64,000 nucleotides of DNA from Actinomycetota bacterium (GCA_014360645.1 JACIXD010000001.1:237647-301646); one strand, 5' to 3'. Counted from the first letter of the stretch, positions 1,877 to 45,738 are shown. Numbers and translations: made by a program. Notes: a model not told the origin generated them from the sequence alone.

Positions 1877-3696
1877 TGCTCACCTGCCTGACGAACCCCT
1901 CGCACCGCCGTGTCCAATTCCATCCGCACGAGGATAAGCCGGTATTCCTCCGACACCTTCTCGCGGGGCGCTGTGATATTGGAGAGCGCGACCCTCCAGT
2001 TCATGGCGCTCCAGGTATGATAGTTGCCGGCCGAGGTAAAATCGCAGGTTGGCGGGATATACTCAAGTCGTACGTCCATCTCGTGATCGATCTCCAAATT
2101 GTTCACGATCACCGTATCGTCGAATATCATCTCGCCCAATCTGTACTGGGAGCGGAAGGTCCTGGCGTTGGTAATAAGATAAAACGTCCCGGTAGTGCCG
2201 ATGTCCTTCAGGCTCACAGGTTTCCAAGGGGTTATCTCGATGATGTCAAGATCATAGGCGAAATAGAGCGGGGCTCCGAGGCCGTAACCACCAAGAGCAT
2301 AGCGGTCCACCAGGACTTTCTCCCCGCGCGAAGCCACCGACGCTATCTCCGCCACTCGCGAAGAAACCCCACGGTATTCCTGGTGGAGAAGCAGGGGATG
2401 GGAAACGCTAACCAGCAGCGCCAGGTACGCTGCCGTCACCCAAAAGGACGCCCCCTTGAGGATCTTGAACGCGGTATAGGAAAAGGCGATGAGAGCCAGG
2501 GGCAGAAGGACGGTCATGAAGCGCCGGAAAAACCAGGGTAGATCGAAAGAGATGCTCGGCCTGAGGAGAAAATAGGCGAAGGGGATAGCCATAAAAGCTA
2601 GGAAAAGCGCAAAAACACGTGTTGTCCCTTGGGACAGGAGAAGGAAGAAAAAGGGGATTATGAAGAGCAGGGCGGGCAGGAAGCCGAACTTTATCATCAC
2701 CATGATGCTGTACTTTGTCTGGTTGGAGTAGATGGCGTTCCTCTCTATATCGGAGACCCGTCCCGAGCCCAGGCCCACGCCGAGGCTGGTCTTTGTGACC
2801 CTCTCTATGCCGTAGGTCCTGTCCATCAAGGTATAAGCGAAAAAGAAAAACGAGACCAGGGCCAGGGTGACGAGGATGAGCACCACCGGCTTGATGGTCC
2901 AGCCATGCCAACGAGCCCGCGAATAGATAAAGAGCCATGCCAGTGTGCCCACCGCCAGAACCAGCAGCCCCTCGATGCGTATGAAGGCAGCCAGGGGGAG
3001 AGTGAGAAGAAAAAGGACGAGGTCGCTTTTGAAGGTGGCGCTCTCTTTGAGGCAACGATGCAGGAAATATAATGAGTTCCAGAAAAGGAAGAGAAAAAGC
3101 ACCTCATTTGCCGTGCGGCGCGCGTACCAGAGGAAGGGGTAGGAGAGAGAGATGAGGGCCACGGCGAATATGCCCGCCCGGGAATCCTCTGAGAGCTCCG
3201 TGGTCAGCAAGAACATCAGCAGGAGAGCGATGGCGAAGGGTATGGCGTTACAGAGCCGAAGGCCGCTGTACCCCATCGTTCCGTAGAGCAGGGCGTTCCA
3301 GGCCGTATTTAGAAAAAGCCTGATATCCCAACCGCGGTGGCCGGGAGGCGGCAAACGGCCGTGTCTTGCGAGGTATATCGCCTGGTTGGAGTAAATGCCC
3401 TCGTCGCGCGTACCGTTGAGGGCGTCATGAAAAAAAAAGACGTTCAGCAAGGTGACGGCGATGATAACAGCGAGGGCGGTGACGAGGATGGCGGCCTCTC
3501 TGCGAGAGCGGGGGCTTCGAGGGCAGAGCGTTCTTTTGCTCAAGAAGTGCCACGCCGGGATGGTGGCCAGTGTTCCGATGGCCAGCACCGCCCACGCGTT
3601 AAAGACTTTCAGGAGCGCGGCGGCCCAGGCCGTCCAAAGGAGGAGCAAGATATACAGCATGACAAAGCGCAGAAGATGACCCAGACGCATCAACAC
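1873..3696 (-). CDS. polytopic membrane glycosyltransferase, GT-C-like (ArnT/PMT/YfhO-type), with a C-terminal extracytoplasmic domain
   Basis: 607 aa with about 12-14 hydrophobic helices in the first ~430 aa followed by a soluble ~170-aa tail. It sits in a glycosyltransferase cluster alongside a GtrB-like GT2. Confidence 0.5.
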   Translation of the reverse strand: MLMRLGHLLRFVMLYILLLLWTAWAAALLKVFNAWAVLAIGTLATIPAWHFLSKRTLCPRSPRSRREAAILVTALAVIIAVTLLNVFFFHDALNGTRDEGIYSNQAIYLARHGRLPPPGHRGWDIRLFLNTAWNALLYGTMGYSGLRLCNAIPFAIALLLMFLLTTELSEDSRAGIFAVALISLSYPFLWYARRTANEVLFLFLFWNSLYFLHRCLKESATFKSDLVLFLLTLPLAAFIRIEGLLVLAVGTLAWLFIYSRARWHGWTIKPVVLILVTLALVSFFFFAYTLMDRTYGIERVTKTSLGVGLGSGRVSDIERNAIYSNQTKYSIMVMIKFGFLPALLFIIPFFFLLLSQGTTRVFALFLAFMAIPFAYFLLRPSISFDLPWFFRRFMTVLLPLALIAFSYTAFKILKGASFWVTAAYLALLVSVSHPLLLHQEYRGVSSRVAEIASVASRGEKVLVDRYALGGYGLGAPLYFAYDLDIIEITPWKPVSLKDIGTTGTFYLITNARTFRSQYRLGEMIFDDTVIVNNLEIDHEMDVRLEYIPPTCDFTSAGNYHTWSAMNWRVALSNITAPREKVSEEYRLILVRMELDTAVRGVRQAGEQ

Positions 3697-5243: not shown

Positions 5244-5462
5244 ATAGAAAGAAAGGCGGTGGGTGCGAGACGTCTCGGTGGTTGCTCTGCTCCGAGGAGT
5301 GCGTGCGCCAAAGCCCTCAGGACATAAAGCTCGGCGCGATGATGCCTGCGGCGCTGCAGTCGCGGCTCCGACGTCCTTTGGTGCCTGCGTCCCGGGCGAG
5401 GCCCTTATCTAGGGCCTGACCACAACCAATAATCTTTGAAAGCACCCCCGAGGGTTTAGAAT

Positions 5463-6575
5463 ATGAACATGGGATCGCTGGTGATGACCTCCTCATTTGA
5501 CGTGTTTCCTCCCCACACAGGGGGAGAGAGGCGCATCTATCAGATCGCCAGGGAGATGGCCGGTCGCGGGCGCGTCATTTTCGTCTACCCGAGGGAGAAA
5601 ACCGTTCCGGCTGAGGATATCCCGGGTATGGAGCTGGTTCCATACCGTATCAGGTGTCGATATCAGAAGCTGTTCAGTGTCGGGATGTTGCACAAGACGA
5701 TAAGGCTGTGCAGCAGGGAGAAGGCGGACCTGTTCTACGTGCATACTATCTGGGGGGGGCTGCAGGCGGTTTTGCTGCGGGCGTTGACCGGGGTCCCTTT
5801 TGTGCTGGACGAACAGAACGTGGAATACCTGAGGTTCCGCGACACGGGAAACCGCCTGTGGCCGATAATGAGAATATATGAAAAGGCGGTGACTGGATTT
5901 GCGGGGCTCGTGGTGTGCGTGTCCGAGAGGGACAAGGAGGCGTTTGTCGAACTGGGCGTCCCGAGGGAACGCCTGTATGTGGCGACAAACGGGGTTGACA
6001 CCTCCGTTTTCCGACCGGACGAGGATGCCCGAAGGAGGGTACGCGGTCAACTGGGCTTGGGAAACGACCCCCTGGTTCTCTTTTTTGGGGCCCTGGATTA
6101 TCCCCCCTCACTGGAAGCGCTTGCAGCGCTGAGGGATCATATCGTGCCCAGGGTAAGGGAAGCGGAACCAGGAGCGCGATTTATCGTGGCAGGGCGCAAC
6201 CCGCCGGCGAGAGCATTTTACGATGGAATGGAATTCGTGGGTTTCGTCGAAAGAATACAGGATTACATCAATGCAAGCGACGTGGTGGTGTGCCCCATAA
6301 CCAGCGGTGGCGGTACGAGGACAAAGATTCTGGAGGCAATCGCTTGCGGAAAAAGGGTGGTGAGTACCACCAAGGGAGCCGAGGGCCTTGAGCTCGATCT
6401 GGTAGGAGAAGGTGTTATCATGGCGGACGACTGGGACGATTTCTCCGATAAGGTGATAAATGCCGTCCGGATGACGGGAATCCCCGTCGATTTGCCGGAG
6501 CGCTTTTATGAGGAGTATTCCTGGAGGGGCATCGTCGAGGGGCTTTCGGCGGCCCTCGAAGGCGTCCGACCTTAG
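5463..6575 (+). CDS. glycosyltransferase family 1
   Basis: 370 aa with a GT4-type C-terminal domain (VCPITSGGGTRTKILEAIACGKRVVST). The start may instead be the ATG at 5484. Confidence 0.8.
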   Translation: MNMGSLVMTSSFDVFPPHTGGERRIYQIAREMAGRGRVIFVYPREKTVPAEDIPGMELVPYRIRCRYQKLFSVGMLHKTIRLCSREKADLFYVHTIWGGLQAVLLRALTGVPFVLDEQNVEYLRFRDTGNRLWPIMRIYEKAVTGFAGLVVCVSERDKEAFVELGVPRERLYVATNGVDTSVFRPDEDARRRVRGQLGLGNDPLVLFFGALDYPPSLEALAALRDHIVPRVREAEPGARFIVAGRNPPARAFYDGMEFVGFVERIQDYINASDVVVCPITSGGGTRTKILEAIACGKRVVSTTKGAEGLELDLVGEGVIMADDWDDFSDKVINAVRMTGIPVDLPERFYEEYSWRGIVEGLSAALEGVRP

Positions 6576-7468
6576 GCCCGACGGCAGGTCGATGCGGCCG
6601 CTTTCTCCCTCCACCAGTGCCAGACGAAACCCGTTAGTTGTGCGAGATACTGCAAAAGGAGAAGGGCCATGGACAGGAGGCCTCTTTTCGCGCCCTGTTG
6701 GCGGATGGCCCTCGATGAGGCCTTGAGCCTGTCTGATACCAGGTCGCGTGATATTCCGCGATAGGCGTGGTATTCATAATAGGATTTTCCTCTGCGGACG
6801 TGCCAGAGGATGAAATCCATGATCCTCTTTCTCGGTTCATGGAGGACGGTGGCATCCTCAACGTACAATATCTCATGGCCGCGTTTTATTAACCTGGATG
6901 CGAGCTCGACGTCCTCGCAGCCGTGGGAGAGCTTTTCGTCGAAGCAACCGAGTTCCAGGAGGAGGTTTCTGTCGATAGCGAAGTTCCCGGAGCAAAGGTG
7001 ATCGGTGATATCTCGCTCGTCTACATTCCACAGGCTCCGAAAACCGACTGACCCGCCGCCGGGATAGCCAAGGGACGATATGGCATCGGCCACCAGGCCC
7101 TGGCCTGTCGGCACCATGTTCCCTGACGTGGTGACCAAGACCTTTTTCTCGATTATGGGCTGGGTCAACTTCTCCAGCCATTGATCGTCAAGGGGGAGTT
7201 CATCATCGTCTATGAATGCGACGACCTGTCCTCTGGCAAGGCTCACGCCTTTATTGCGGTAATAAGGGATGCCCTTGGCTGGTGTTTCCCGAATCACCCT
7301 GATGATGTCGCTTTCGGGCAGCCTACTGGATATATCGGCCTGGGGGACAAGTATGATTTCAAAAGGATAATCCGATCGTTGTCGCAGAAGGGCCTCGACG
7401 AGGGGGTAGAGGCTTTCACGTCCCATGGTAGGGATGATCACGGAGATCGCGATATCACTCGGTCTCAA
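6572..7468 (-). CDS. glycosyltransferase family 2
   Basis: 298 aa with a GT2 N-terminus (ISVIIPTMGRESL...VAFIDDDELP, DxD). It is convergent with, and overlaps by 4 bp, the preceding GT1. Confidence 0.75.
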   Translation of the reverse strand: MRPSDIAISVIIPTMGRESLYPLVEALLRQRSDYPFEIILVPQADISSRLPESDIIRVIRETPAKGIPYYRNKGVSLARGQVVAFIDDDELPLDDQWLEKLTQPIIEKKVLVTTSGNMVPTGQGLVADAISSLGYPGGGSVGFRSLWNVDERDITDHLCSGNFAIDRNLLLELGCFDEKLSHGCEDVELASRLIKRGHEILYVEDATVLHEPRKRIMDFILWHVRRGKSYYEYHAYRGISRDLVSDRLKASSRAIRQQGAKRGLLSMALLLLQYLAQLTGFVWHWWREKAAASTCRRA

Positions 7469-8128
7469 GAGCTCGCTGCCTTCTGTTATACGTGATGTCG
7501 GCGCCGCAAAAAAGACGGCGCCACCCCTTCTGGGCGCCGCGTGATCCCTGCAAGCCTAAGTACTTGAAGTCATCAAAACTTTCGTTGCCTGAGCCTGTCC
7601 TTCCGCAGAATTCGGGGCGCATGACGTCCTTAGACTGCACGCCATATTCACAGCCGAAAACCCCATTCCCTCTGTGCCCTCCATGCATCCTCGGCGGTTG
7701 CCTCAGCATTCTCCATCCAGGACGAAACATCTTCGCGTAGAAACCATCCAGATTAGTGAGCATGGTAAGATGTTAGAGCTTATGCGATTCGGAGTAAAGC
7801 TGGTATCTGAGCAGCAAAAGTAATGCGCAGGCGAGGACCGCCATTAGCGAGGCTGCGTAGCCCTGGCGACATGTTAGAATGTATACACCGGAGATTGTGT
7901 TGGTTGGCGTATGATGCCGGCGGCTGTCGGCAGCAAGACGATGCGTGATGACCTGCTTGATGGAACGGCGGGCCGCGAAAAGGTGAAGGGGGTTGCAGCG
8001 GTCTTTATGATCAGGCAACAAACCTCAGGGTATAGCGTCTGGCTTCCAGATGGCATCATCCTGATCTGCCGGAAATCTGCATATTCCTCGCGAGGGATCG
8101 GAAGCGATAAAAACGGGAGTAGTCTAGC

Positions 8129-11440: not shown

Positions 11441-12394
11441 TTGAGGATACTCATCACGGGGATAACCGGGTTCGTAGGGAGCCACCTTGCGGAATACGCC
11501 CTCACCAAAGAAGGGGTGGAGGTCTTCGGCACCGTGCGCTGGCGGTCGCGCATGGACAACGTGGAGGGCATCCTGGACCGCATCCACATCATCGACTGCG
11601 ACCTGCGGGACAACGTGGCGGTGAAGAGGACGCTGGAGGAGGTCCGCCCCGATTACATCTTCCACTTGGCGGCCCAGAGCTTCGTGCCCACCTCCTGGAA
11701 GGCTCCCGCCGAGACCCTCACCACCAACATCATCTCCCAGCTCAACCTGCTGGAGTCCATCCGCGACCTGGGGCTGGAGACGCGCATCCAGGTGGCGGGA
11801 TCGAGCGAGGAGTACGGCCTGGTCTTCGAGCACGAGACGCCCATAAGCGAGGAGAACCCCCTGCGCCCCCTGTCCCCCTACGCGGTGAGCAAGGTGGCCC
11901 AGGACATGCTGGCCTACCAGTACCACCGCAGCTACGGCATCTACGCCGTGCGCACCCGAGCCTTCAACCACGAGGGGCCGCGCCGCGGGCACGTCTTCGT
12001 CACCAGCAACTTCGCCAAGCAGATCGCGGAGATCGAGAAGGGCAAGAAGGAGCCGGTCATCGAGGTGGGAAACCTCAACGCCCGCCGGGATTTCACCGAC
12101 GTGAGGGACATGGTCAAGGCCTACTGGCTATCCCTGGAGAAGGGCGAGGCGGGGGAGGTGTACAACATCGGGTCCGGGCGCGCGGTGACCATCCGCGAGA
12201 TGCTGGACATGCTGCTCTCCTACTCCCACCTGGATATCGAGATCAGGCCGGTTCCCGAGCGCATGCGCCCCTCCGATGTGGAGCTCTTGATCTGCGACTG
12301 CAGCAAGTTCAAGGCCATCACGGGGTGGAGCCCGGAGATACCCCTGGAAAAGACCCTGAAGGACACCCTGGATTACTGGCGTGAGCGCGTATGA
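11441..12394 (+). CDS. gmd: GDP-mannose 4,6-dehydratase
   Basis: 317 aa with a TTG start 4 nt after an AAGGAGGAG RBS. Carries the GMD hallmark [10 protein letters not shown], plus [15 protein letters not shown] and PYAVSK. Confidence 0.7.
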
Positions 12395-13703: not shown

Positions 13704-13925
13704 AGACCCGCGCGCAATAGCACTATGCGTGCGGGCAGTCGCTCGCCTTGTTATGTTCACGCCATGCCCGCCGAGGGATGGCGGCCCACGTCGCTCGACG
13801 GCCTTGATCTTGAGAGACGGGGTAGTTCACCGCGATCTTCCTGGATGAGGTCGCCCGTGTTTGCAGGGAAACCCCATCCGCATGGCCACGTCTGAGAGAT
13901 TGCGCAATATAACCGCGATCATGTT

Positions 13926-13958
13926 AATATAATCATTAAGTTGTTTGATGATTATATT
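13926..13958. promoter_or_regulatory. 11-bp perfect inverted repeat (AATATAATCAT-N11-ATGATTATATT), operator-like, upstream of the fic gene
   Basis: A perfect palindrome with no G/C (so not a terminator), lying 36-68 bp upstream of the fic ATG in the AT-rich leader. Confidence 0.35.
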
Positions 13959-13993
13959 TAATTGCATCCGGAAAGCGGGATTCCATTTTCAAG

Positions 13994-15079
13994 ATGACGG
14001 ACAAAATGGCTTCACGGAGGGGAGCGGGAGGAATGAGATCCTTTGAGGAAGGATTCATCTCAGGACAAGCTATAACCCAGGGACTCATCATGACCATCAG
14101 GACTATCGGAGAGTACAAGGGAAGGCATGCTCTGTACAAGTCGCAGGCTCCCCAGTTGCTGGAGACATTGCGGACGACTGCGATCGTCAACAGTGCCGAG
14201 GCATCAAACAGGATCGAGGGGATAACCGCACCCCTTAAGAGGATAGAGGAATTGGTGATAAGAAGGGATGAGCCCCGTAATCGATCGGAGCAGGAGATAG
14301 CGGGTTACAGGGATGCGCTGAGCACCATTCATGCAAACTGGCCAGACATGGATTTTAGCGCCGGCCTGGTTCTGCAGCTACATCGTGACCTGTTCAAGTA
14401 TGTTCCCGGGCAGGGGGGCAGATGGAAGCAGGTCGATGACGAGATAGCGGAGACTCTGCCTACCGGGGAGAAGATAGTGAGGTTCAAGCCTGTTCCAGCT
14501 CATCTAACGGGTGAGGCCATGGTGCGGTTGCATGAGCGATTCAATAGTGCATGGGAGGCAGGCGAGGTAGAGCCTTTGCTCATCATCCCGGCTTACATCC
14601 TGGATTTCCTGTGCATCCGTCCCTTTCTTGACGGTAACGGCAGGATGGCCAGGCTCATAACCCTGCTACTTCTATATAAGGCGGGCTATGAGGTTGGCAG
14701 GTATATCAGCCTCGAGAAGGTGATAGATGAAAACCGCGAGGGCTATTATGATGCTCTGCGAGGCTCGGATCGGGGATGGCACGAAGGAAACCACTCCCTC
14801 CTTCCCTGGTGGGAGTTTTTCCTGGGAGTCATGCTAATAGGAGCCTATAGGGAATTAGAACGGCGCGTAGGCGTGGTTTCCACTAAACGCGGCCATAAAC
14901 GAGAGATGATCCAGGATACCATTCGGCGATTGCCGGCGGAGTTCAGGGTATCCGATATCGAGAGAATATGTCCGGGAATAAGCAGGCCCACCATCAACAG
15001 GGTTCTTGCAATGCTCCGAGACAGAGGCGAGATCCGCTGCGTCAAGGCGGGTAGAGACGCGATATGGCGCAAGCTCTAG
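13994..15079 (+). CDS. Fic family protein (class II-like with N-terminal SxxxEG inhibitory motif and C-terminal wHTH); Fic motif has Arg in place of the catalytic His
   Basis: 361 aa. The Fic core is RPFLDGNGRMAR (canonical HPFx[DE]GNGRxxR; codon cgt at the His position). N-terminal SNRIEG matches the (S/T)xxxE(G/N) inhibitory helix, and the C-terminal ~60 aa look like a winged HTH. The gene sits in a lower-GC region. Confidence 0.7.
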   Translation: MTDKMASRRGAGGMRSFEEGFISGQAITQGLIMTIRTIGEYKGRHALYKSQAPQLLETLRTTAIVNSAEASNRIEGITAPLKRIEELVIRRDEPRNRSEQEIAGYRDALSTIHANWPDMDFSAGLVLQLHRDLFKYVPGQGGRWKQVDDEIAETLPTGEKIVRFKPVPAHLTGEAMVRLHERFNSAWEAGEVEPLLIIPAYILDFLCIRPFLDGNGRMARLITLLLLYKAGYEVGRYISLEKVIDENREGYYDALRGSDRGWHEGNHSLLPWWEFFLGVMLIGAYRELERRVGVVSTKRGHKREMIQDTIRRLPAEFRVSDIERICPGISRPTINRVLAMLRDRGEIRCVKAGRDAIWRKL

Positions 15080-15289
15080 AGATCACCCGCTGGCCTTGCG
15101 GTGGTGACGAAACCTTTGCCGGATTGGGGGTGGCCGCGGCCCGCATTCTCAAGATTAGGTATCGGCCATGAAAACATTGCCGGGAAGGGGAACGCTGAAG
15201 AAATTTCGATCCAGTCGCAGGCGGATGAGACGGCCGAGAAGGAGCAAACGATCGACAGCGCAACTCATAGATCGAGGCGGAGGTGAAAA

Positions 15290-16318
15290 GTGAACGTCGA
15301 GAAGGGCGGGGATTTCAAGGCGGTGGACTGGCGTGACGGCAGGGTGGTCCTGCTCGACCAGACGCGGCTTCCCGCGGAGGAGGTCTATATGGAGATCTCC
15401 GATTGGCGGGAGGTGGCCGAGGCCATAAGGAAGATGCGCGTGAGGGGAGCTCCCGCCATCGGGATAGCCGCCGCCTACGGCATCGCCCTGGCGGCCCTGG
15501 CGCCCGGCGCGAGGCGGGAGGTGGAGGCGGCGTGCCGGGAGCTGGCCACGGCGAGGCCCACGGCGGTGAACCTGGCGTGGGCGGTGGAGCGCATGCGCCG
15601 GGTGGCGGTGGACGCGCCCGCGGAGGGGCTTGCGGCCGCCCTCCTCTCCGAGGCGCACGAGATCGCGGCGGAGCAGGACGCCGCCGACCGGGCCATAGGC
15701 GAATTCGGGGCGGAGCTGCTCCCCGGGGGATGCCGCGTCCTCACCCACTGCAACGCGGGTGGGCTCGCCACCTATTCCTACGGCACCGCCCTGGGAGTGA
15801 TCAAGACCGCCTTCCGCCAGGGAAAGATCGCCCACGTGTGGGTGGACGAGACGCGGCCCCTCCTGCAGGGTGCTCGTCTCACCGCCTGGGAGCTCATGCG
15901 CGAGGGCATCCCCATGTCCCTCGTCTGTGACAACATGGCCGGGCACCTCATGTCCAGGGGGGAGGTGGACGCGGTGGTCACCGGGGCCGACCGGGTGGCG
16001 GCAAACGGAGACAGCGCGAACAAGATCGGCACCTACGCCCTGGCGGTGCTGGCGGAAAAGCACGGCCTGCCCTTCTATATCGCGGCGCCGCTCTCCACCC
16101 TGGACCCCGCCGCCGCCGACGGCGGGTCCATCCCTATCGAGGAGAGGGAGGAGGCGGAGGTCACCATCCTCGCCGGGACGGCCATCGCCCCCGCGGGGGT
16201 ACGAGCCCGTAACTTCGCCTTCGACGTCACCCCGGCCGAGCTCATCACCGCCATCATCACCGAGAGGGGCGTGGCCAGGCCTCCCTACGGCAGGTCCCTG
16301 CGCGAGCTCCTGGACTGA
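15290..16318 (+). CDS. mtnA: S-methyl-5-thioribose-1-phosphate isomerase (eIF-2B alpha/beta/delta family)
   Basis: 342 aa with a GTG start after GGAGGTG. MtnA-like throughout ([14 protein letters not shown]...[10 protein letters not shown]...ANKIGTY). Confidence 0.75.
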
Positions 16319-16551: not shown

Positions 16552-17670
16552 ATGAAGGCGATGATCCTCGCGGCGGGGCTGGGAACCCGCCTGCGTCCCC
16601 TCACGGAGGAGATATCCAAGCCCATGGTGCCCATCGTCAACCGTCCCGTGATGGAGCACATCGTCGAGCTGCTGGCGCGCCACGGCTTCCACGAGCTGTA
16701 CGTGAACCTCCATTACCACCCCGAGGTGATCACCGGGCACTTCGGGGACGGCGCGAGATGGGGGCTCTCCATCACCTACTCCTACGAGGAGGAGCTGCTG
16801 GGGACCGCCGGGGGCGTCAAGAAGCTGGAGCGGGAACTGGGCGGCGAGAGGTTCCTGGTCATCAGCGGGGACGCCCTCACCGACCTCGACCTCACCGCGC
16901 TCATGGCCTTCCACGTCGGGCACGGGGCCCCGGCAACCATCGTGGTCACGCCGGTGGATGACCCCTCCAAGTACGGGGTGGTGATAATGGACGAGGGCGC
17001 CCGCATCGTGGCCTTCCAGGAGAAGCCCTCGCACGAGGAGGCGCGCAGCCATCTCGCCAACAGCGGCATATACGTGTTCGAGCCGGAGGTCCTGGAGATG
17101 ATTCCCCAGGGGTTCTATGATTTCGGCTCGCAGCTCTTCCCGCGTTTCCTGGCGGAAGGCACGCCTTTCTACGGCTACAGGCACCGGGATTACTGGAACG
17201 ACGTGGGGAGCCTGGAGGAGTACAAGGCGGGGAATTTCGACGCCCTCACCGGCAAGGTGAAGGTGAGGATACCGGGCGTTAGGATAGGGGACGACGTGTG
17301 GATAGGGGACGAGACGGTGATCGAGGAGGACGTGGTCATGGTCGGCCCCATCTGCATCGGCTCCCGTTGCCTGGTGAGGAAGGGCGCCAAGCTCTTCGGG
17401 CCCCTGGTGGTGGGGGACCGCACGGTCATCGACGAGGGCGCGGTTCTTTACCGCGGCATCAAGTGGGGGGACGGATACATAGGAAAGGACGCCCATCTCA
17501 TGGATTCCATCGTGGGGTGGGAGGCGGAGATAGGGAGGGGGGCCTCTCTGCTCTCCGATACGGTGGTGGGACACCGCGTGGTCATCGGGGAGGGGAGCGT
17601 CATCCACCCCAGCGTGAGCATCATGCCGGGCTCGGTCATCGAGAAGAACCACCACTTCAAAGGCGACTGA
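16552..17670 (+). CDS. sugar-1-phosphate nucleotidyltransferase with C-terminal hexapeptide (LbH) domain
   Basis: MKAMILAAGLGTRLRPLT nucleotidyltransferase motif followed by a left-handed beta-helix. The ORF-track start at 16516 lies inside a TATAAT -10 box, so the internal ATG at 16552 is preferred. Confidence 0.65.
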   Translation: MKAMILAAGLGTRLRPLTEEISKPMVPIVNRPVMEHIVELLARHGFHELYVNLHYHPEVITGHFGDGARWGLSITYSYEEELLGTAGGVKKLERELGGERFLVISGDALTDLDLTALMAFHVGHGAPATIVVTPVDDPSKYGVVIMDEGARIVAFQEKPSHEEARSHLANSGIYVFEPEVLEMIPQGFYDFGSQLFPRFLAEGTPFYGYRHRDYWNDVGSLEEYKAGNFDALTGKVKVRIPGVRIGDDVWIGDETVIEEDVVMVGPICIGSRCLVRKGAKLFGPLVVGDRTVIDEGAVLYRGIKWGDGYIGKDAHLMDSIVGWEAEIGRGASLLSDTVVGHRVVIGEGSVIHPSVSIMPGSVIEKNHHFKGD

Positions 17671-17734
17671 TGGGGTCAGCCCCGGACATGGGACATTTTG
17701 TATGTGCGGGGGTATGCGCGGGCGTATGCGTGCC

Positions 17735-18410
17735 AGGCCTGGACCTCGCTGCGCTCCGTCCAGGCACTGGACACCGTAGCGCCTGCGGCGCTATCGCTTT
17801 CGCGATGCAGTCTCTCGCGCGATAAAGGATGACGCCCAGCCGCACAGGCACTGGACACCGTAGCGCCTGCGGCGCTATCGCTTTCGCGATGCAGTCTCTC
17901 GCGCGATAAAGGATGACGCCCAGCCGCACAGGCACTGGACACCGTAGCGCCTCCGGCGCTATCGCATTCGCGATGCAGTCTCTCGCACGATAAAGGATAA
18001 CACCCCGCCTAGCCAGGCGCTGGACACCGTAGCGCCTCCGGCGCTATCGCATTCGCGATGCAGTCTCTCGCACGATAAAGGATAACACCCCGCCTAGCCA
18101 GGCGCTGGACACCGTAGCGCCTCCGGCGCTATCGCTTACGCGATGCAGTCTCTCGCGCGATAAAGGATGACGCCCCGCCGCACAGGCACTGGACACCGTA
18201 GCGCCTGCGGCGCTATCGCTTACGCGATGCAGTCTCTCGCGCGATAAAGGATTACACCCCGCCGCACAGGCACCAGGCACCGTAGCGCCTGCGGCGCTAT
18301 CGCTTCCGCGATGCAGTCTCTCGCGCGATAAAGGATTACACCCCGCCGCACAGGCACCAGGCACCGTAGCGCCTGCGGCGCTATCGCTTTCGCGATGCAT
18401 TCCATCGGTC
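17735..18410. repeat. tandem direct repeat array, ~8 copies of an 83-85-bp unit (A A A B B A' C C subtypes)
   Basis: Full unit copies start at 17761, 17845, 17929, 18014, 18099, 18184, 18267 and 18351 (period 83-85 bp), preceded by a partial degenerate copy from ~17735. The unit caggcactggacaccgtagcgcctgcggcgctatcgctttcgcgatgcagtctctcgcgcgataaaggatgacgcccagccgca contains the small palindromes tagcgcc-tgc-ggcgcta, atcgc-tttc-gcgat and tcgcgcga. Copies differ at only a few positions. Confidence 0.9.
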
Positions 18411-18554
18411 GGGAGACCATAAGAACCTTTCTAAAAACACAAAACACTCGATCGTAACGAACCGGTCGTTCCCGGGCCAGGGCAAGGATGGAATGATGAG
18501 GTTCTTCTCCTGCTCCCGCTCATGGCGCCGCTTTGCAGGAAACCCATCTCGCTA

Positions 18555-18584
18555 TTGACATAACTTATAAAACATGATAAAAAT
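18555..18584 (+). promoter_or_regulatory. sigma70-type promoter (TTGACA-17-TAAAAAT) upstream of comF
   Basis: A perfect -35 hexamer sits in an AT-rich segment. The -10 ends about 7 nt before the ATG at 18592, so the comF mRNA may be leaderless. Confidence 0.4.
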
Positions 18585-18591
18585 AATAAAC

Positions 18592-19308
18592 ATGATAATA
18601 TATATACTTAACGAGCTGCTCTTCCCGGTGAGATGCGCCGGATGCGGGAGGTGCCTGCGCAGGCCGATATGTCCCGAGTGCAACGCGGCCATGCCCATGG
18701 TAAGAGGGCACACCTGCTCGCGGTGCGGCAGGCCCACCATGTATGCGGTGAACGGCTGCCTGCAGTGCGGCACCGGCCTGAGATCGGTCGACCACACAGT
18801 GGCCATGGCGGTGTACGAGGAGCCGCTGCGTTCCGTCATCCACAAACTGAAATATGGCAACGGCTGGAGGCTTGCGGCTCCGCTGGGCGCCATGGCGGCG
18901 GCACGCCTCGCCCCGCACCTGGCCACGAGCCGGCCCGCCGTCACCTTCGTTCCCATGCACCGACGTAGGAGGATGGAGCGCGGTTACGACCATGCCGAGA
19001 AGCTGGCTGCAGGCGTGGCGCGCGCCCTGGGTCTGGAGGTGGTACGCCTGCTCGAGCGCTCCCGTCTTTCCCCCTCACAGGCCTCCCTGGGGTATGCGGA
19101 GAGGCGGAAGAATGTAAAGGGGGCGTTCAGGCTGAAGGCGGATGGCCAGCTGCCGGAGGAGGTGGTGGTGGTGGACGACGTGCTCACCACGGGCTCCACT
19201 CTGGCGGAGTGCGCGGACACGCTCAAGGCGGGAGGGGCACGAAGGGTGGTGGCGTGTGTGCTCGCCCGGGACCTCCTCGAGGTGGGATCGGTCCCGGAGG
19301 CGGTGTGA
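18592..19308 (+). CDS. comF: ComF family protein (ComFC-like phosphoribosyltransferase-domain protein)
   Basis: N-terminal Zn-finger CAGCGRC...CPEC and a C-terminal PRTase motif VVVVDDVLTTGSTL. The start is uncertain (ATG 18592, possibly leaderless, or GTG 18628); the ORF-track start at 18574 lies within the promoter. Confidence 0.7.
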   Translation: MIIYILNELLFPVRCAGCGRCLRRPICPECNAAMPMVRGHTCSRCGRPTMYAVNGCLQCGTGLRSVDHTVAMAVYEEPLRSVIHKLKYGNGWRLAAPLGAMAAARLAPHLATSRPAVTFVPMHRRRRMERGYDHAEKLAAGVARALGLEVVRLLERSRLSPSQASLGYAERRKNVKGAFRLKADGQLPEEVVVVDDVLTTGSTLAECADTLKAGGARRVVACVLARDLLEVGSVPEAV

Positions 19309-20125: not shown

Positions 20126-20554
20126 GGAACCGGAAGGCTTCGGCCCGGGTCTGTGGTTGAAAGTCGATGCCAGCCGCAGGCGAAACGACCCACGTAAGCC
20201 AACTCTTGGTTGGTGAGCATGGTGCGGCTTAGGGGTAAGTCCTGCCCGGCACAAAGCCGGAGAAGCGTAGTAGTGGAGGGCCAGGGTTCTTTCCGGAGAA
20301 GAGCCCGCCCTCTGCGAGCCGTTCAGCAGGCGAGTGTGGGGGCAAAGACCAGGTCAGCCGGGTTCCGAGGCCTTCCTCGTGCCCGCATGCATGTTGGCAT
20401 CGGACCGATGGTATGCTAGGCTATTGCGAGTCGATGCACGGAAGCCGGGTCGCGGTCCGGGTGTGGACCGGCCCCATGAACAGGTCTCGATGATGGCCCA
20501 TACCGACACCAGCCTGGTATGGGTTTTTTCGCTGAGAGGAAGGGAGCGAGGAAC

Positions 20555-21094
20555 ATGCAGATGATCGTCAAGGGGAAGAACCTGGAGGTCACCGACGCCC
20601 TGCGCGCGTACGCGCAGGAGAAGGTGGGCAAGGTGGAGAAATACCTCGATCGCATCACCAAGACCGAGATCGAGATGAGCGTGGAGAAGAACCCCAAGAT
20701 CCCCGACAACCAGGTGGTGGAGGTCACCATCTTCTCCAGCGGCCCCGTGATCAGGGCAAAGGAGTCCGCCACCGACATGTACCAGGCCATCGACCTGGTG
20801 GCGGGCAAGCTCGAGCGCCAGGCGCGCAAGGTGAAGAAGAAGCTCATAGACCGCTCCCACCACGCGAAGAACCCCCTGAAGGAGATGGCGGTGGAAGAGG
20901 AGGAAGAGCCCGAGCCGGTGATCGTGAAGACCAAGAGCTTCCCGCTCAAGCCCATGACCCCCGAGGAGGCCTGCCTCCAGATGGACCTGGTGGGCCACGA
21001 TTTCTTCGTCTTCGTCAACGCCGAGACGGAGGAGACCAACGTGGTTTATCGAAGAAAGGATGGGAACTACGGCCTGATCGAGCCGGGAGGTTGA
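20555..21094 (+). CDS. hpf: ribosome hibernation promoting factor, long form
   Basis: MQMIVKGKNLEVTDALRAYAQEKVGKVEKYL is a classic HPF/RaiA N-terminus, and the long-form C-terminal domain is present. Preceded by a [16 protein letters not shown]. Confidence 0.85.
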   Translation: MQMIVKGKNLEVTDALRAYAQEKVGKVEKYLDRITKTEIEMSVEKNPKIPDNQVVEVTIFSSGPVIRAKESATDMYQAIDLVAGKLERQARKVKKKLIDRSHHAKNPLKEMAVEEEEEPEPVIVKTKSFPLKPMTPEEACLQMDLVGHDFFVFVNAETEETNVVYRRKDGNYGLIEPGG

Positions 21095-27306: not shown

Positions 27307-28408
27307 TTGCTGAGCGACTACCGAGGAGAGCTCGTGGAGATAGCCGCAAGGCTGGAGAAGATTAAGGAGTATCTTTGACATAGAGGGCAAGCGGGCGCGG
27401 GCGGCGGAGCTGGAGACGCAGGCCTCCCGTCCCGACCTCTGGGAAGACCAGGAGAACGCCAGGAGCATCCTGGCGGAGCTCGCGTCCTGCAGGGACACCG
27501 TGGAGAACTGGGAGAGGCTGGATTCCCAGCAGCGGGAGCTGGCGGAGCTCGTGGAGCTGGCCCAGGAGGAGGAGGACCTCAGCCTTCTGGAGGAGATCGC
27601 GGCGGGGGTGGGAGGTCTGCGGCGCGAGGTGGACCGCCTGGAGGAGAAGAGCCTGCTCTCGGGGGAGTTCGACGCCAGGGACGCCATCGCCAGCATCCAC
27701 CCGGGTGCCGGGGGTCTGGAGTCCCAGGACTGGGCGGAGATGTTGCTGCGCATGTACCTGCGCTGGGCGGAGTCGCGCGGCTTCAAGGTGGATCTCAACG
27801 ATGTGCAGGAGGGAGAGGGCGGGGGCATAAAGAGCGCCACCTTCACCGTGCACGGGCCGTACGCCTACGGCCTGCTCCTCCCCGAAAAGGGCGTGCACCG
27901 CCTGGTGCGCATCTCCCCCTTCGACGCCTCCAGCCGCCGTCACACCTCCTTCGCCTCCCTGGACGTCATCCCCATGCTGGAGGACGAGGGAGAGATCGAG
28001 ATCGACCCCAGGGACCTGCGCATCGATACCTACCGCTCCAGCGGCGCGGGGGGGCAGCACGTGAACGTCACCGATTCCGCGGTGCGCATAACCCATCTAC
28101 CCACCGGCATCGTGGTCTCCTGCCAGAACGAGCGCTCCCAGATCTCCAACCGCCAGACGGCCATGCGCATCCTGCGGGCGAGACTGGCGGACCTGGCCCG
28201 CAGGGAGAGGGAGAGGGAGATGGCCAAACTCAGGGGCGAGAAGATGGAGATAGGCTTCGGGAGCCAGATCCGCTCTTACGTGCTCCATCCCTACCGCATG
28301 GCCAAGGACCACCGCACCGGGCTGGAGGTGGGCAACGTGGACGCGGTGCTCGACGGCGACCTGGACGAGTTCATCGACGCCTACCTGCGCCTGAAGGCCT
28401 CCTCGTAA
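27307..28408 (+). CDS. prfB: peptide chain release factor 2, requiring a programmed +1 frameshift at CTT TGA C (27373-27379)
   Basis: The frame-0 ORF starts at a TTG (27307) after AAGGAGGG and reads MLSDYRGELVEIAARLEKIKEYL before a TGA. The +1 frame continues DIEGKRARAAELE... to the RF2 body, with SPF (RISPFDASSRRHTSF) and GGQ motifs. Confidence 0.85.
27364..27379 (+). other. prfB programmed +1 ribosomal frameshift site (internal SD-like AAGGAG, then TAT CTT TGA C)
   Basis: aaggag tat ctt tga c matches the canonical RF2 autoregulatory frameshift cassette (SD-like element 3 nt upstream, CUU slippery codon, UGA-C). Confidence 0.8.
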
Positions 28409-34189: not shown

Positions 34190-34535
34190 TGGTGGAGGCG
34201 GGGGGAGTCGAACCCCCGTCCAGAAATCCGGCCGGGTGGGCTCTACGAGCGTATCCGCCGCGAGGTTTTTCGCCACCGGGTCGCCCGGCGGAGGGCTAGC
34301 CGGCGGCTATCCCGTCAGGGTTTTCCCTCGGCCCTTACGGGAGTGGGGCCTCGGTGAGCCCGCTGCATGACGCCCCTTCCCCGGTCGCGGGCCTCCCGGG
34401 GAGGGACGGGCCGCTTAAGCGGCCAGGGCCAACTCGCTGTCGGCGTCTGTTGGTTTTCCCGCTTGTTGACGAGGCTCGGGTCCCCGGCTCGCTCCCGCGC
34501 CGGCCGCCGATCCCTGTCGAAGCCGTTTCGCCCCC
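34190..34535 (-). ncRNA. ssrA: tmRNA (transfer-messenger RNA, SsrA)
   Basis: The minus strand reads 5'-GGGGGCGAAACGGCUUCGACAGGG...GGACGGGGGUUCGACUCCCCCCGCCUCCACCA-3'. The acceptor stem carries a G3:U wobble (Ala identity), the T-arm is canonical and CCA is encoded. The internal tag ORF is ...GGA AAA CCA ACA GAC GCC GAC AGC GAG UUG GCC CUG GCC GCU UAA, giving (A)GKPTDADSELALAA. smpB is adjacent. Confidence 0.85.
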
Positions 34536-41889: not shown

Positions 41890-41965
41890 TGGAGCGGGAG
41901 ACGGGCCTCGAACCCGCGACCTAGAGCTTGGAAGGCTCTCGCTCTTCCAACTGAGCTACTCCCGC
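41890..41965 (-). tRNA. tRNA-Gly(UCC)
   Basis: Minus-strand cloverleaf GCGGGAGUAGCUCAGUUGGAAGAGCGAGAGCCUUCCAAGCUCUAGGUCGCGGGUUCGAGGCCCGUCUCCCGCUCCA. The anticodon loop is CUUCCAA and CCA is encoded. Confidence 0.85.
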
Positions 41966-42166
41966 TCGCTTCAGGGAATATTCTAGCACATGCTCAAGCC
42001 CGGTCGGATCACGTCCGGGCCTCCCGTGGGCGCCGGTCCGCGGCGGGTGCGCGCCGGGCCTTCTGGCGGCCCAGCCCGTCTCCGCCCCCGCCGTCCCCCT
42101 CCGTCGCGAAGATGCGTCCTCCTCGCGGGAGGAGGGTCGGCGCCTTCCGGTTCGCCGGCAAAAAAA

Positions 42167-42244
42167 TGGTCGGGGTGGGCGGATTTGAACCGCCGACCTC
42201 ATGCTCCCAAAGCATGCGCGCTGACCAAGCTGCGCTACACCCCG
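42167..42244 (-). tRNA. tRNA-Pro(UGG)
   Basis: Minus strand CGGGGUGUAGCGCAGCUUGGUCAGCGCGCAUGCUUUGGGAGCAUGAGGUCGGCGGUUCAAAUCCGCCCACCCCGACCA. The anticodon loop is UUUGGGA. Confidence 0.85.
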
Positions 42245-42601
42245 ATGCCCCGATTATAGCATCGCGCCGCGCGGCGCATATCCTCGAGGCGGCGGATCCG
42301 GTACGGCGCGGATACCCCATCACGCGTCCGCCGGCGGTCCGCACGGTCCTTTCTGGCTCCGACGGACCTGGCTTATAATTGGCTGCATGGACGGCCGGGG
42401 GGTGTGGGCTTCTCCGGGGCGCCGCCTCCGGAGCGCCTTCCCGGGGGTGGGACGCGATGCGCAGGGTCCCGGGCGCGCAGGGGCGGGGCCGAGATGGCGG
42501 CGGCGCAGGTGCGGGTGCACGAGAAGAGGTCCAAGACGGCGGAGCAAGGTCGTAAAGGGTAAGAGCGGCGGGAGTACGGGGCGTGCAAGGGAGGAAGAGG
42601 T

Positions 42602-43228
42602 ATGCTGGTAGAAAAGGGCTGGTTCATACCCACGCTGCAGTTCGGTGACGAGGACGTCTTCCTGGTGGAGGACTGGGATGATACCCCCGCGGGCCCCTAC
42701 CGGGCCGTCTTCCATTTCACTCCTGGGGACTTCCGCACCCTCTACGTAAGCAGCGAGGCGGGAAGAGACCTCGTCTCCACCATCCACCGCTTCGACGAGA
42801 TGCGGGTCACGGAGATGGTATCGCGAAGAGACGGCGGGCGGTGGACCGTGGAGGTCGACACGGGCGAGAAGGGGGTGCTGCGCATGGAGGTGGATCACCG
42901 GGAGACGCCCCTACTCAAGGCGGTGAACCTGGTAGCCAGGCATACCCCCGACCTCATCGCCCGCAACCGCCTCTACTGCGCGCTGCTGCCGCGGCTGGCG
43001 GCTCCCATCCTGGGCACCGACCCCGGACAGAAGCTCATGGGGGTGACGGAGATGGGGCGCAACACGCGTTTCCGCCTGGAGCGCATCTTCGAGGTGACCT
43101 CCGCCCGCTGCACCTGGGGCGGGAGGGACGTGGGGCCGTTGGTGGACTGCTGTTTCCGTCACGACATGGGGGCATATAGGACCATATCCAAGGCCATGGT
43201 CAGCTACCTGTACCTGCTGGTGGAGTGA
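42602..43228 (+). CDS. hypothetical protein
   Basis: 208 aa with no recognised motif. A TATAAT -10 lies upstream at 42372-42377. Confidence 0.45.
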   Translation: MLVEKGWFIPTLQFGDEDVFLVEDWDDTPAGPYRAVFHFTPGDFRTLYVSSEAGRDLVSTIHRFDEMRVTEMVSRRDGGRWTVEVDTGEKGVLRMEVDHRETPLLKAVNLVARHTPDLIARNRLYCALLPRLAAPILGTDPGQKLMGVTEMGRNTRFRLERIFEVTSARCTWGGRDVGPLVDCCFRHDMGAYRTISKAMVSYLYLLVE

Positions 43229-43250
43229 GGGAACGCCGGGAGGACCTTCC

Positions 43251-44753
43251 ATGCTCAAGCCCACGCGGCGCGACCTGGAGAACATCTTTCACTACGTGGG
43301 CGTGGTCCTCATGGTCCTCGGCGCGTGCATGGCGGCGCCTCTGCTGGCGAGCCTGGCGGCGGGGGAGTGGGCCCCCGCCCTGGATTTCCTCATCTCCGCA
43401 TGCGTGACCGCCGGGGTGGGCAACCTCCTCTTCTTCTCCACCCGCGCGAGGGGAAGGGTCACCTGGAACCAAGGCCTGGTCATCGTCGCCCTCACCTGGT
43501 TTTTCGCCATGGTCTTCTCGGCGCTCCCCCTCTACCTCGGGGGCCATTACGGGTCCTTCCTGGACGCCTGCTTCGAGTCCATGTCGGGCCTGGCCACCAC
43601 CGGCCTCACCCTGGTGCACGACCTCGACCATATGGCCTACGGCATGAACCTCTGGCGGCACTTCATCATGTTCCTGGGCGGCCAGGGCATCGTGGTGCTG
43701 GTGATCACCTATTTCATGGCCGGGACCGGCACCGCCACCCAGATGTACACGGGGGAGGGGCGCGAGAGCATCATGCCCAGCGTCATCGAGAGCTCGCGCT
43801 TCATCTGGAAGGTGAGCGTGTTCTACCTGCTTGCGGGCACCCTGGGCCTGGGGATTTGCCTCCTTACCCAGGGCATGGCCCCCGTGCGCTCCTTCTTCCA
43901 CGCCGCCTGCCTGTTCATGGCGGGGTTCGACACCGGGGGCTTCACGCCCCAGACCCTGAGCGTGGGCTATTACCACAGCCTGCCCGTGGAGCTGATCACC
44001 ATGGCCTTCATGCTCCTGGGCACGGTCAACTTCGCGGTGCAGTACGAGGTGTGGAGGAAGCGCCCCGGTGAACTGGTGCGGAACATCGAGACGCGGACCA
44101 TGACCGTGACCATCATCCTCACCCTGGGGCTGGTGCTCGCGGGGTTGAGCTTGGCCGGCACCTTCGGTTCCTTCGGGTCCGAGCTGAGGCGGGGCGTCTA
44201 CCACCTCATCTCGGGCCACAGCGGGACGGGGTTCATGACCGTCAACGGGCAGCAGATGGGGGCGAGGTGGGGCGACCTGGCGCTCTTCGGGCTCATCGTG
44301 GCCATGGGGCTGGGAGGCTGCGCCTGCTCCACCTCCGGCGCCATCAAGGCCATCCGCGTGGGGATACTCTCCAAGGAGATCAAGGCGAGGACCAAGCAGG
44401 TGCTCTCCCCCGCCTCTGCGGTGGTGGTGGAGCGCTTCCACCATATCAGGGACATGGCGATGACGGAGCGCATGGTGAGCGCGGCCCTCTTCACCACCGC
44501 CCTCTACCTTCTGCTCTACCTGCTGGGAACGGTGGTGGGCCTCTTCTACGGCTACGGGCTCACCGCCTCCGTCTTCGAGTCCGTGTCTGCGGCGGGCAAC
44601 GTGGGGCTGACCACCGGGGTGACCAGTTACACCATGCCCGCCTTGCTCAAGGTGGTGTACATCTTCGAGATGTGGGCGGGAAGGCTGGAGGTGCTGGCGG
44701 TGGTGGTCCTCTTCGTCTATTTCGTCAACCTGCTGTGGAGGTGGCGCAGGTGA
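43251..44753 (+). CDS. TrkH/KtrB family cation (K+) transporter
   Basis: 500 aa, polytopic, with the repeated pore-loop glycine motifs of Trk/Ktr transporters (ATTGLT, GGQGIV, GFDTGGF, HSGTGF, SAAGNVGLT). Confidence 0.75.
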   Translation: MLKPTRRDLENIFHYVGVVLMVLGACMAAPLLASLAAGEWAPALDFLISACVTAGVGNLLFFSTRARGRVTWNQGLVIVALTWFFAMVFSALPLYLGGHYGSFLDACFESMSGLATTGLTLVHDLDHMAYGMNLWRHFIMFLGGQGIVVLVITYFMAGTGTATQMYTGEGRESIMPSVIESSRFIWKVSVFYLLAGTLGLGICLLTQGMAPVRSFFHAACLFMAGFDTGGFTPQTLSVGYYHSLPVELITMAFMLLGTVNFAVQYEVWRKRPGELVRNIETRTMTVTIILTLGLVLAGLSLAGTFGSFGSELRRGVYHLISGHSGTGFMTVNGQQMGARWGDLALFGLIVAMGLGGCACSTSGAIKAIRVGILSKEIKARTKQVLSPASAVVVERFHHIRDMAMTERMVSAALFTTALYLLLYLLGTVVGLFYGYGLTASVFESVSAAGNVGLTTGVTSYTMPALLKVVYIFEMWAGRLEVLAVVVLFVYFVNLLWRWRR

Positions 44754-45364
44754 GAAGAGCGCTGGCGCTGGCGGTGTTCCTGGCCTGTGCCGCCCCCTTC
44801 CTCATCTGCGCGGCCTCCCCTGCCTTCGCCGGGGAAGAGGGGCGGGAGACGAACACTGCCGAGCTGCTGGAGAGGTGGCGGGAATACGACGGCATGGAGG
44901 TGGTGCTGCGGGGCGAGGCGGTGGGCGACGTCATGCGCCGCGGTGACCACGCCTGGATCACCTTGAACGATGACCATTACAGCCGGGAGGCGAGGCGCGA
45001 GGCGGGTCTGCTGAGGGGCGGCAACAGCGGCATCGGGGTCTGGATCCCGGTGGAGGAGGCGGAGAAGATAAGGGTGCTGGGAAGATATGGCAGCAAGGGC
45101 GACCTGGTCGAGGTACGCGGGGTCTTCAACTCCGACTGCCGCGAGCACGGAGGGGATTTCGACCTCCACGCCACCTCGCTGCGGGTCATCGACCCGGGAA
45201 GGGAGCTGGGCTCGGATATCGACTACGGGAAATCCCGGGGGGCCCTGATGGCCCTGCTCTTCCTCCTCGGCACCGGGGCGCCATACCTGCGCCGCCGGGC
45301 ACGGGAGTACCGCGCCGCGCGTGCTCTCCTGGCGGACGAGGAGGAGCCGCCGGCGGGACGGTGA
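44750..45364 (+). CDS. hypothetical secreted/membrane-anchored protein (signal peptide, C-terminal TM helix)
   Basis: The GTG start overlaps the trkH stop after GGAGGTGG. Has an N-terminal signal-like ALALAVFLACAAPFLICAASPAFA and a C-terminal hydrophobic ALMALLFLLGTGAPYL. Confidence 0.45.
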   Translation: MRRALALAVFLACAAPFLICAASPAFAGEEGRETNTAELLERWREYDGMEVVLRGEAVGDVMRRGDHAWITLNDDHYSREARREAGLLRGGNSGIGVWIPVEEAEKIRVLGRYGSKGDLVEVRGVFNSDCREHGGDFDLHATSLRVIDPGRELGSDIDYGKSRGALMALLFLLGTGAPYLRRRAREYRAARALLADEEEPPAGR

Positions 45365-45573
45365 CGGATTCGCCTGTATCGCCAAGCGGTGCTGCCGGTG
45401 CTTTAGCGCCCTCATGTATGGCGCCCCGGCGGAGCCCCTGCGGCCCCGGCCTTGTCGCGGCGCCACGGGGCTTCCGTGTCGCGCCGTTCCCTCCGGCCGG
45501 AGGCGCATCGGGGACGGCGGGCATGGCGCGAGACAAGATCGAAGGCGAGGGCGCCGCCCCCGCCTTCAAAACC

Positions 45574-45650
45574 TGGGGTGAGGGACGGGATTCGAACCCG
45601 CGGCCTCCGGGGCCACAACCCGGTGCTCTGCCGGCTGAGCTACCCCCACC
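45574..45650 (-). tRNA. tRNA-His(GUG) with genomically encoded G-1
   Basis: Minus strand G-GUGGGGGUAGCUCAGCCGGCAGAGCACCGGGUUGUGGCCCCGGAGGCCGCGGGUUCGAAUCCCGUCCCUCACCCCA. The anticodon loop is UUGUGGC and an extra 5' G is present. Confidence 0.8.
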
Positions 45651-45661
45651 AAGGATCCTGC

Positions 45662-45738
45662 TGGCACGCCTGGGAGGACTCGAACCTCCAACCTGCGGAT
45701 TAGAAGTCCGCTGCTCTGTCCGGTTGAGCTACAGGCGC
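45662..45738 (-). tRNA. tRNA-Arg(UCU)
   Basis: Minus strand GCGCCUGUAGCUCAACCGGACAGAGCAGCGGACUUCUAAUCCGCAGGUUGGAGGUUCGAGUCCUCCCAGGCGUGCCA. The anticodon loop is CUUCUAA, and G1 pairs with U72 (wobble). Confidence 0.75.

Follow-up and report, generated by a model that had tools for sequence, protein, structure and literature searches.

Three described kinds of repeat come closest in architecture to the array considered here, namely the BIME-2/REP325 clusters, the pneumococcal BOX elements and the MIRU minisatellites. In Escherichia coli, REP325 consists of six repeats of two palindromic units each, lies between co-directional genes and both terminates transcription in part and stabilises the upstream mRNA; REP sequences are characterised by a GTAG that heads an imperfect palindrome of 20-40 nt. 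Pneumococcal BOX elements are modular, with the formula boxA-(boxB)n-boxC, in which a conserved end module is combined with a variable number of tandem boxB modules, each 45 bp in length, and they occupy more than 100 loci. MIRU minisatellites are intergenic, are found within operons and vary in copy number. Tandem units that each contain an inverted repeat are also known from sopC of plasmid F, which has 12 units of 43 bp. Small interspersed repeats of this sort have been studied almost only in cultured model bacteria, and the family described here comes from an uncultured, deep-branching class, the Geothermincolia.

The window that we analysed is a stretch of 64,000 nucleotides from an Actinomycetota bacterium (JACIXD010000001.1:237647-301646). 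A tandem array lies there in the spacer between a nucleotidyltransferase gene (ntp) and comF, where the preliminary description had placed it, and Pfam confirms both flanking genes (Table 1). The element is a modular non-coding repeat of operon spacers, with variable copy number, two genomic homes and conserved stems. We consider the array to be, more probably than not, a non-coding, lineage-specific, interspersed palindromic minisatellite of Ca. Geothermincolia (Actinomycetota), where 'interspersed' is to be taken in its minimal sense because two loci are known.

Table 1. Features of the array and its surroundings; positions are those of the window unless a contig is named
Feature	Position	Strand	Remarks
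Upstream gene, NDP-sugar nucleotidyltransferase (NTP_transferase + hexapeptide)	16552..17670	+	Pfam; array in 3' flank
12-bp micro-repeat GTATGCGCGGGC x2.6	17700..17730		Tandem Repeats Finder and sequence; adjoins head on left
Head, 43 nt: GCGTATGCGTGCCAGGCCTGGAC-CTCGCTGCGCTCC-GTCCAGG	17722..17764		Left of unit 1
Seven full 84/85-bp units	17761..18350		Starts 17761, 17845, 17929, 18014, 18099, 18183, 18267; Tandem Repeats Finder, anchor spacing, nhmmer
Stem-loop 1 (unit 1; recurs in every unit): TAGCGCC-TGC-GGCGCTA, 7-bp arms	17777..17793		Preceded by G, giving GTAG
Stem-loop 2 (unit 1; recurs in every unit): ATCGC-TTTC-GCGAT, 5-bp arms	17793..17806		
Third palindrome, 8 nt: TCGCGCGA	17815..17822		92% paired
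Eighth unit, truncated (49-62 nt), decaying	18351..18412		Conserved to GCGATGCA at 18399, degenerate beyond
comF promoter-like site TTGACA-18-AAAAAT	18555..18584	+	AT-rich stretch; outside element
Downstream gene comF (double zinc ribbon + phosphoribosyltransferase)	18574..19308	+	Pfam
Unrelated repeat mosaic of relatives, core CCTTGGGGTCGTATCTTGACTTTTTCC, periods 66-110	L004 9150-9711; L041 4026-4184, 4349-4501		

The output of Tandem Repeats Finder contains one strong array, at 17761-18399 (period 84, 7.6 copies, 95% matches, 1% indels, score 1039), and the array as a whole extends over 17761-18412 as seven full 84/85-bp units followed by one truncated unit. Eight copies of a 24-nt core motif follow one another at intervals of 84, 84, 85, 85, 84, 84 and 84 bp, where shuffled sequences would lead one to expect none, and the motif has no match in the 64-kb window outside the array; each of the seven full units scores 87-94 bits with nhmmer. 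The eight-copy, 84-bp array originally reported is therefore real, although its eighth unit is truncated. Its internal order needs correction, since unit-by-unit comparison gives the block pattern A A B B' C D E E'(partial) and not the A A A B B A' C C that had been read from the sequence: units 1 and 2 are the sole identical pair, units 3 and 4 differ by one base, and units 5, 6 and 7 are each distinct. The figure of 7.6 copies is that of the assembly, in which identical adjacent units (168 nt) are hard to count with short reads.

The same head and units recur at a second locus, the spacer that separates the genes for an alcohol dehydrogenase (ADH) and a HAD hydrolase, where three metagenome contigs of independent origin carry them (L003, L045 and L046). 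One of these, FWPV01008432 (L003), was found by a metagenome-wide pattern scan and carries the head and 2.7 units adjoining a zinc-type alcohol dehydrogenase gene; orthologous ADH-HAD contigs were retrieved with the ADH protein as the query. L045 (JGI 3300002733) has two units (3291-3457) and the head (3443-3496) between the ADH stop and the start of the HAD hydrolase gene, and L046 breaks within a unit. Relative to the flanking genes, the element at ADH-HAD is oriented opposite to the one in the window. Array-free forms of the ADH-HAD spacer also exist, measuring 168 bp in L047 and L048, which come from the MAG that also contains L004; in L049-L052, of a more distant lineage, the spacer measures 89 bp. 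Copy number is accordingly 0 (L047-L052), 2 (L045) or 2.7 (L003) at ADH-HAD, and 7.6 here or 0 (L004-L012) at ntp-comF, these being differences between species or lineages, not strains. With such copy-number polymorphism, and with head-to-tail units in the 40-100-bp range between co-directional genes at both loci, the element resembles MIRU-type repeats.

Other copies of the unit were sought, as suggested in the preliminary description. The 64-kb window and related loci of about 530 kb, together 595 kb from the lineage, gave the ADH-HAD locus and no further head or unit. Solitary or diverged units elsewhere in the lineage DNA were likewise sought with nhmmer --max, which returned nothing below E = 0.35. 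One GTDB-wide pattern scan, a strict one of genome contigs that gave no match, and one metagenome-wide pattern scan together yielded a single extra contig.

To the left of unit 1 lies the head, a module that the earlier account of the array did not include. It is an inverted, degenerate copy of the start of the unit and pairs with the start of unit 1, such that head and unit 1 are predicted to form a long imperfect hairpin with an energy of -49.2 kcal/mol over 17715-17800 (86 nt). The last copy of the GTATGCGCGGGC micro-repeat runs into its outer arm. Across 17722-17775, which covers the head and the first bases of unit 1, identity is 54/54 in L045 and 53/54 in L003; against this, units are 66-90% identical between the two loci, and the unique spacer parts of L003 and L045 have visibly diverged. 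Conservation of the head could, on sequence grounds, be due to recent copying rather than to selection. In the array-free ADH-HAD spacer of L049, GGCCTGGCACGCGTAAG is found where the outer arm of the head (GGCCTGGCACGCATACG) would be, and part of that arm appears to be native to the ADH-HAD spacer. We found no terminal inverted repeats, target duplications or shared distal module at the ends of the element, which led us to discard MITE-like ends, and a decayed unit is all that the distal flanks of the two loci have in common. Seen against the BOX elements, there is thus a conserved terminal module (the head, 54/54 at two loci) with variable internal modules (2, 2.7 or 7.6 units), and neither a second terminal module nor pairing terminal inverted repeats.

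Each unit contains the three palindromes that had been attributed to it, and the first of them reads GTAGCGCC-TGC-GGCGCTA in all eight units, matching the GTAG-headed imperfect palindrome of REPs. The pairing statistics refer to an alignment of 13 units in the minus orientation. All seven pairs of stem 1 are 100% paired across these 13 units; the outermost pair shows a double (compensatory) change from U-A to C-G in both L045 units, and the pair beside it is G-U instead of A-U in two L003 units, a change that on the opposite strand gives an A.C mismatch. Stem 2 is invariant in 13/13 aligned units, with all changes confined to its loop, which on the minus strand is GAAA, GGAA, GUAA or GAAU and conforms to GNRA in 12 of 14 units. 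The third palindrome is more variable: units 3 and 4 have the asymmetric TCGCACGA, L003 has TCGATCGA, and in L045 it has decayed. Changes in the core are located in the loops of stems 1 and 2 and in the middle of the third palindrome. When ten units are compared, only one of the 21 variable columns lies within the 29 stem columns (hypergeometric P ~6e-4, for arms that were defined post hoc, after inspection). This pattern of variation, as far as sequences can tell and with few independent changes to draw upon, favours conserved hairpins, and it weakly favours a functional strand that would be sense at ADH-HAD and antisense in the window. The covariation comprises one double change and one G-U change, each common to two related units.

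The thermodynamic data need to be set beside this. The folding energy of one unit, of the unit core and of two units is not better than that of dinucleotide shuffles on either strand (z from +0.3 to -0.7), so the structure prediction that had been suggested for the unit revealed nothing more stable than chance, and a thermodynamically unusual RNA was rejected. No Rfam 15 family passes its gathering score at 17000-19000, which removes a known RNA family from consideration for the array; the sole match at E <= 10 is to naRNA4 (RF02564), with 18.9 bits against a gathering score of 59.5 and E = 2.1, and the array does not belong to this REP325 model. The stand-alone non-coding RNA that had been listed among the possible roles consequently finds no support in folding energy (z from about 0 to -0.7) or in Rfam. 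Because it is the minus-orientation strand that accommodates the G-U pair and the GNRA-type loops, and this strand is antisense at the window locus, any RNA role there is no more than putative.

The window locus belongs to a core region of the chromosome, and the gene order there is S-adenosylhomocysteine hydrolase (ahcY), Fic, MtnA, ntp, the array, comF, flgM, raiA RNA, hpf, two HD-domain proteins and secA, as identified with Pfam and Rfam, and the 372-aa ntp product has an exact match in Logan sample SRR11866716. Other genes in the window are of the housekeeping type (glycosyltransferases, RF2, FtsEX, tmRNA, RNase PH, trigger factor, ClpP, ClpX, ValRS and FolC). The 40 window ORFs scanned with Pfam include no gene for a transposase, a Cas protein or a partition function, and no partition or replication genes adjoin either locus, as would be the case for a centromere or iteron site. 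Across the whole window, Rfam matches at gathering level are limited to raiA, tmRNA and tRNAs. Origin from a phage, plasmid or virus was considered and rejected, there being no match in those collections.

The nearest genomes are Ca. Geothermincolia MAGs, the ntp protein having 92% amino acid identity to 'Actinomycetota bacterium Ch49' and 89% to Ca. Solincola daggyaiensis. The order mtnA-ntp-comF is kept in nine Geothermincolia genomes (L004-L012), and the 84-bp unit is absent from the ntp-comF spacer of every sequenced relative examined. This spacer is hypervariable, with a length of 110-240 bp in most genomes and 381 bp of unique sequence in L005; in L008 the ntp-comF spacer (1184 bp long) contains an extra minus-strand ORF at 6990-8000. 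In the closest relatives, L004 and L041/L042, it is occupied by a different, unrelated tandem-repeat mosaic (Table 1), and L041 and L042 each terminate in a further repeat of about 100 bp. Homology of the array to the spacer repeats of L004 and L041 was rejected, as they have only a 14-nt match, the score of which was equalled by 10 of 300 shuffles. Elsewhere in L004 (4367-4860) there is a 106-bp array of 4.6 copies whose units align to the 3' end of a GDP-mannose-dehydratase-like gene (window 12311-12394), and which is an array born from a gene end; another Geothermincolia MAG, L009, has an array with a 216-bp period at 5315-5818 (2.4 copies, with 37-bp sub-repeats). From these unrelated long-period arrays it follows that tandem duplication of spacer segments of about 70-110 bp is common in the lineage, and the ntp-comF spacer itself is a repeat hotspot. 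Of the roles put forward in the preliminary description, a replication-slippage hotspot is therefore favoured, with copy numbers of 0, 2, 2.7 and 7.6 and a hypervariable ntp-comF spacer that holds unrelated repeats in the closest relatives. A REP-like array is favoured too, on account of the two loci, either orientation and the same range of copy numbers, although in the DNA searched it does not look like a common dispersed REP.

A regulatory element for comF is unlikely, because the promoter-like site is some 150 nt away and is kept in relatives that lack the array. The array had been said to abut the comF promoter; the site in fact lies about 145-155 nt past the array end, and an equivalent AT-rich stretch is found 5' of comF in all the relatives (L004-L012), where the array is absent. 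The true start of comF is probably the ATG at 18592, since tblastn alignments start near residue 12. With the -10-like hexamer ending at 18584, the comF mRNA may be leaderless or nearly so.

We also considered whether the repeat might encode protein. The period of 84 is divisible by 3 and two minus-strand frames are open; the two 85-bp units nevertheless break every frame and no ORF spans the array, and a protein-coding repeat was rejected. A composite six-frame query of the repeat found nothing homologous among 5.8 billion proteins, the ORFs of 118 and 92 aa had no exact match, and a 24-aa mini-ORF that begins at GGATGAC is lost in units 3, 4, 6 and 7. The earlier view that the reading frames across the array are mere translations of the repeat holds, and so does the view that the array is not CRISPR-like. 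A CRISPR was rejected because all 84 nt are homologous between units: they match at 95% over their whole length, the variable columns are point differences only, and there are no unique spacers. What the array has in common with a CRISPR is regular spacing, a palindromic core and a one-sided, leader-like conserved flank; what separates them, besides the missing spacers, is that no cas genes occur among the ORFs scanned.

Comparison with the systems introduced above places the array as a new family of a known kind, outside every named family, since it has no significant match to naRNA4, only two loci in the DNA searched, no known RAYT and no second end module. With REP325/BIME-2, from which naRNA4 derives, it shares the possibility of forming hairpins or cruciforms, and the weak naRNA4 match is its only one in Rfam; the action that we propose for the array is also the one shown for REP325, namely partial termination and stabilisation of the upstream mRNA. 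It differs in having no significant sequence or covariance-model match, in palindromic units that all point one way where those of REP325/BIME-2 alternate, in being found at two loci rather than hundreds, in the lack of a known RAYT and in the presence of a conserved head. BOX elements resemble it in their modular build, in their intergenic, interspersed placement, in the stem-loops predicted if they are transcribed, and in a copy number that varies more in longer arrays. Here, however, there is one conserved end module, with no equivalent of boxC and no terminal inverted repeats, and the 84-bp unit, present at two loci, has no sequence similarity to BOX. The MIRU-VNTR loci are likened to it by description, not by sequence: they too are actinobacterial, are composed of 40-100-bp head-to-tail units, are mostly intergenic in operons, where they are presumably co-transcribed, and are polymorphic in copy number. 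In contrast, neither conserved hairpins nor a head module is a defining feature of MIRUs, and the small ORF from GGATGAC is not conserved in the array. Centromere and iteron arrays of plasmids also consist of tandem direct repeats that each contain a short inverted repeat, but the array is chromosomal, has no par or rep genes nearby and is dispensable in relatives.

Several other explanations deserve consideration. It is unlikely that the array presents a series of dyad-symmetric DNA sites to a dimeric protein, be this a nucleoid-associated or regulatory factor or the ligand of a centromere- or iteron-like site such as sopC. The invariance of the palindrome arms, with variation in their centres, would suit such sites; the exchange of T-A for C-G at symmetric positions of stem 1 would suit a symmetric operator no less than a hairpin, and the replacement of TCGCGCGA by TCGATCGA in L003 retains symmetry where a hairpin could not form. 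Yet the A-to-G change in L003 breaks the symmetry of the DNA and keeps a G-U pair in the RNA, the third palindrome has neither survived in L045 nor stayed symmetric in units 3 and 4, par, rep and dedicated regulator genes are absent beside either locus, and relatives do without the array at both. We are similarly disinclined to see in it a selfish mobile non-coding element of no benefit to the host, with hairpins recognised by a RAYT or IS200/IS605-type HUH transposase that acts on single strands and is encoded at another genomic site, even though the same head and units are found, oppositely oriented, in two spacers that are unrelated, the head shows perfect conservation, GTAG precedes stem-loop 1 as in REPs, and the lack of terminal inverted repeats or a target duplication is what hairpin-dependent transposition would give. 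An element of this sort sits uneasily with a presence at two loci only, with no more in 595 kb of lineage DNA and one extra contig in the public scans, and the window ORFs scanned include no transposase; moreover, part of the head is apparently native to the ADH-HAD spacer, and ectopic recombination or a one-off copy would fit equally well.

Less probable still is a stand-alone structured non-coding RNA gene or a multi-copy array of small RNAs, with its own promoter and perhaps processed to 84-nt units, which we regard as very unlikely. The stems are conserved with one compensatory change, the loops on the minus-orientation strand are GNRA-type in 12/14 units, and weak terminator-like hairpins are present in some units on the minus strand (three sites). 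The minimum free energy is nevertheless not better than that of shuffles, the best Rfam match (naRNA4, E = 2.1) identifies no family, no promoter-like site other than that of comF is present in or beside the array, and the array is missing from close relatives and free to vary in copy number. There is scarcely more room for an assembly artefact, or for a copy number inflated or collapsed by the short-read assembler, and we give this explanation the least credence. The identity of units 1 and 2 and the single base that separates units 3 and 4 are of the kind that an assembler might produce, and public short-read contigs from the same strain end at or near the array (L001 at 18374, L002 at 18414 and L040 at about 17695). 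A looping assembler would not, however, invent the staggered, mosaic variants seen among the units; the independent Logan contig L001, from its start at 18374, is 100% identical thereafter and so reproduces the right junction, and three unrelated projects have yielded assembled arrays of this family.

Returning to the palindromic minisatellite, a history for it can be proposed. The array would first have formed in the ADH-HAD spacer, which we infer because the array-free version of that spacer already has a portion of the head's outer arm. Head and units would then have been copied ectopically, as one segment, into the ntp-comF spacer of the window's lineage, and copy number would rise and fall through slippage during replication or through unequal recombination. 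None of the window ORFs scanned was recognised as a mobilising enzyme. If the array has any function in the cell, it would act in cis on the read-through RNA of the operon, where the stack of hairpins may block 3' exonucleases and/or damp read-through into the next gene, as in E. coli REP325. Such an RNA-hairpin role, proposed by analogy, is a tentative suggestion and in our view somewhat doubtful. It is improbable, though conceivable, that the element represents a new kind of mobile module working at the RNA level, in which a GNRA-capped hairpin cassette is copied between operon spacers by a hairpin-recognising (HUH/RAYT-like) enzyme and then tunes the relative expression of the flanking genes by its orientation and copy number; the minus-orientation strand would in that case be the functional RNA, and the copy in the window would be antisense-acting or inert.

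The array opens no new biological principle. Its interest lies in a history that may be partly readable, from an array-free spacer with part of the head, through the birth of the array, to a reversed copy in a second operon spacer. It may thus provide a compact natural test case for how repeat families arise and spread and for whether hairpin arrays set the ratio of expression of neighbouring genes. At a practical level, the array is a point at which short-read contigs of a conserved housekeeping locus break, and strains could be told apart by the number of its copies.

Some further features of the window were noted during this work. A raiA RNA motif (RF03072), scoring 177.6 bits where the gathering score is 101.3, occupies 20140-20368 on the plus strand. 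It is flanked by flgM and by the hpf/raiA gene (20519-21094), the usual comFC-raiA neighbourhood of the motif. The tmRNA at 34190-34535 on the minus strand, with the tag ADSELALAA, and the five tRNA genes (Gly, Pro, His, Arg and Leu) at 41890-46040 are ordinary. The gene of the Fic/DOC family (13994-15079) lies in a 1.6-kb segment, 13712-15308, that has no counterpart in the otherwise collinear L004 and L005, and this segment looks like a lineage-specific insertion between ahcY and mtnA. The RF2 ORF (PCRF/RF-1, 27500-28408) starts at profile position 39, which suggests that a different frame may encode the N-terminal part, an arrangement known from prfB with its classic programmed +1 frameshift. 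Finally, a 309-bp tandem duplication (1.9 copies, 99% identity) at 53653-54246 is situated within a 1292-aa ORF with TIG and DUF5719 matches (50387-54265) and is a recent in-frame duplication of a 103-aa domain.
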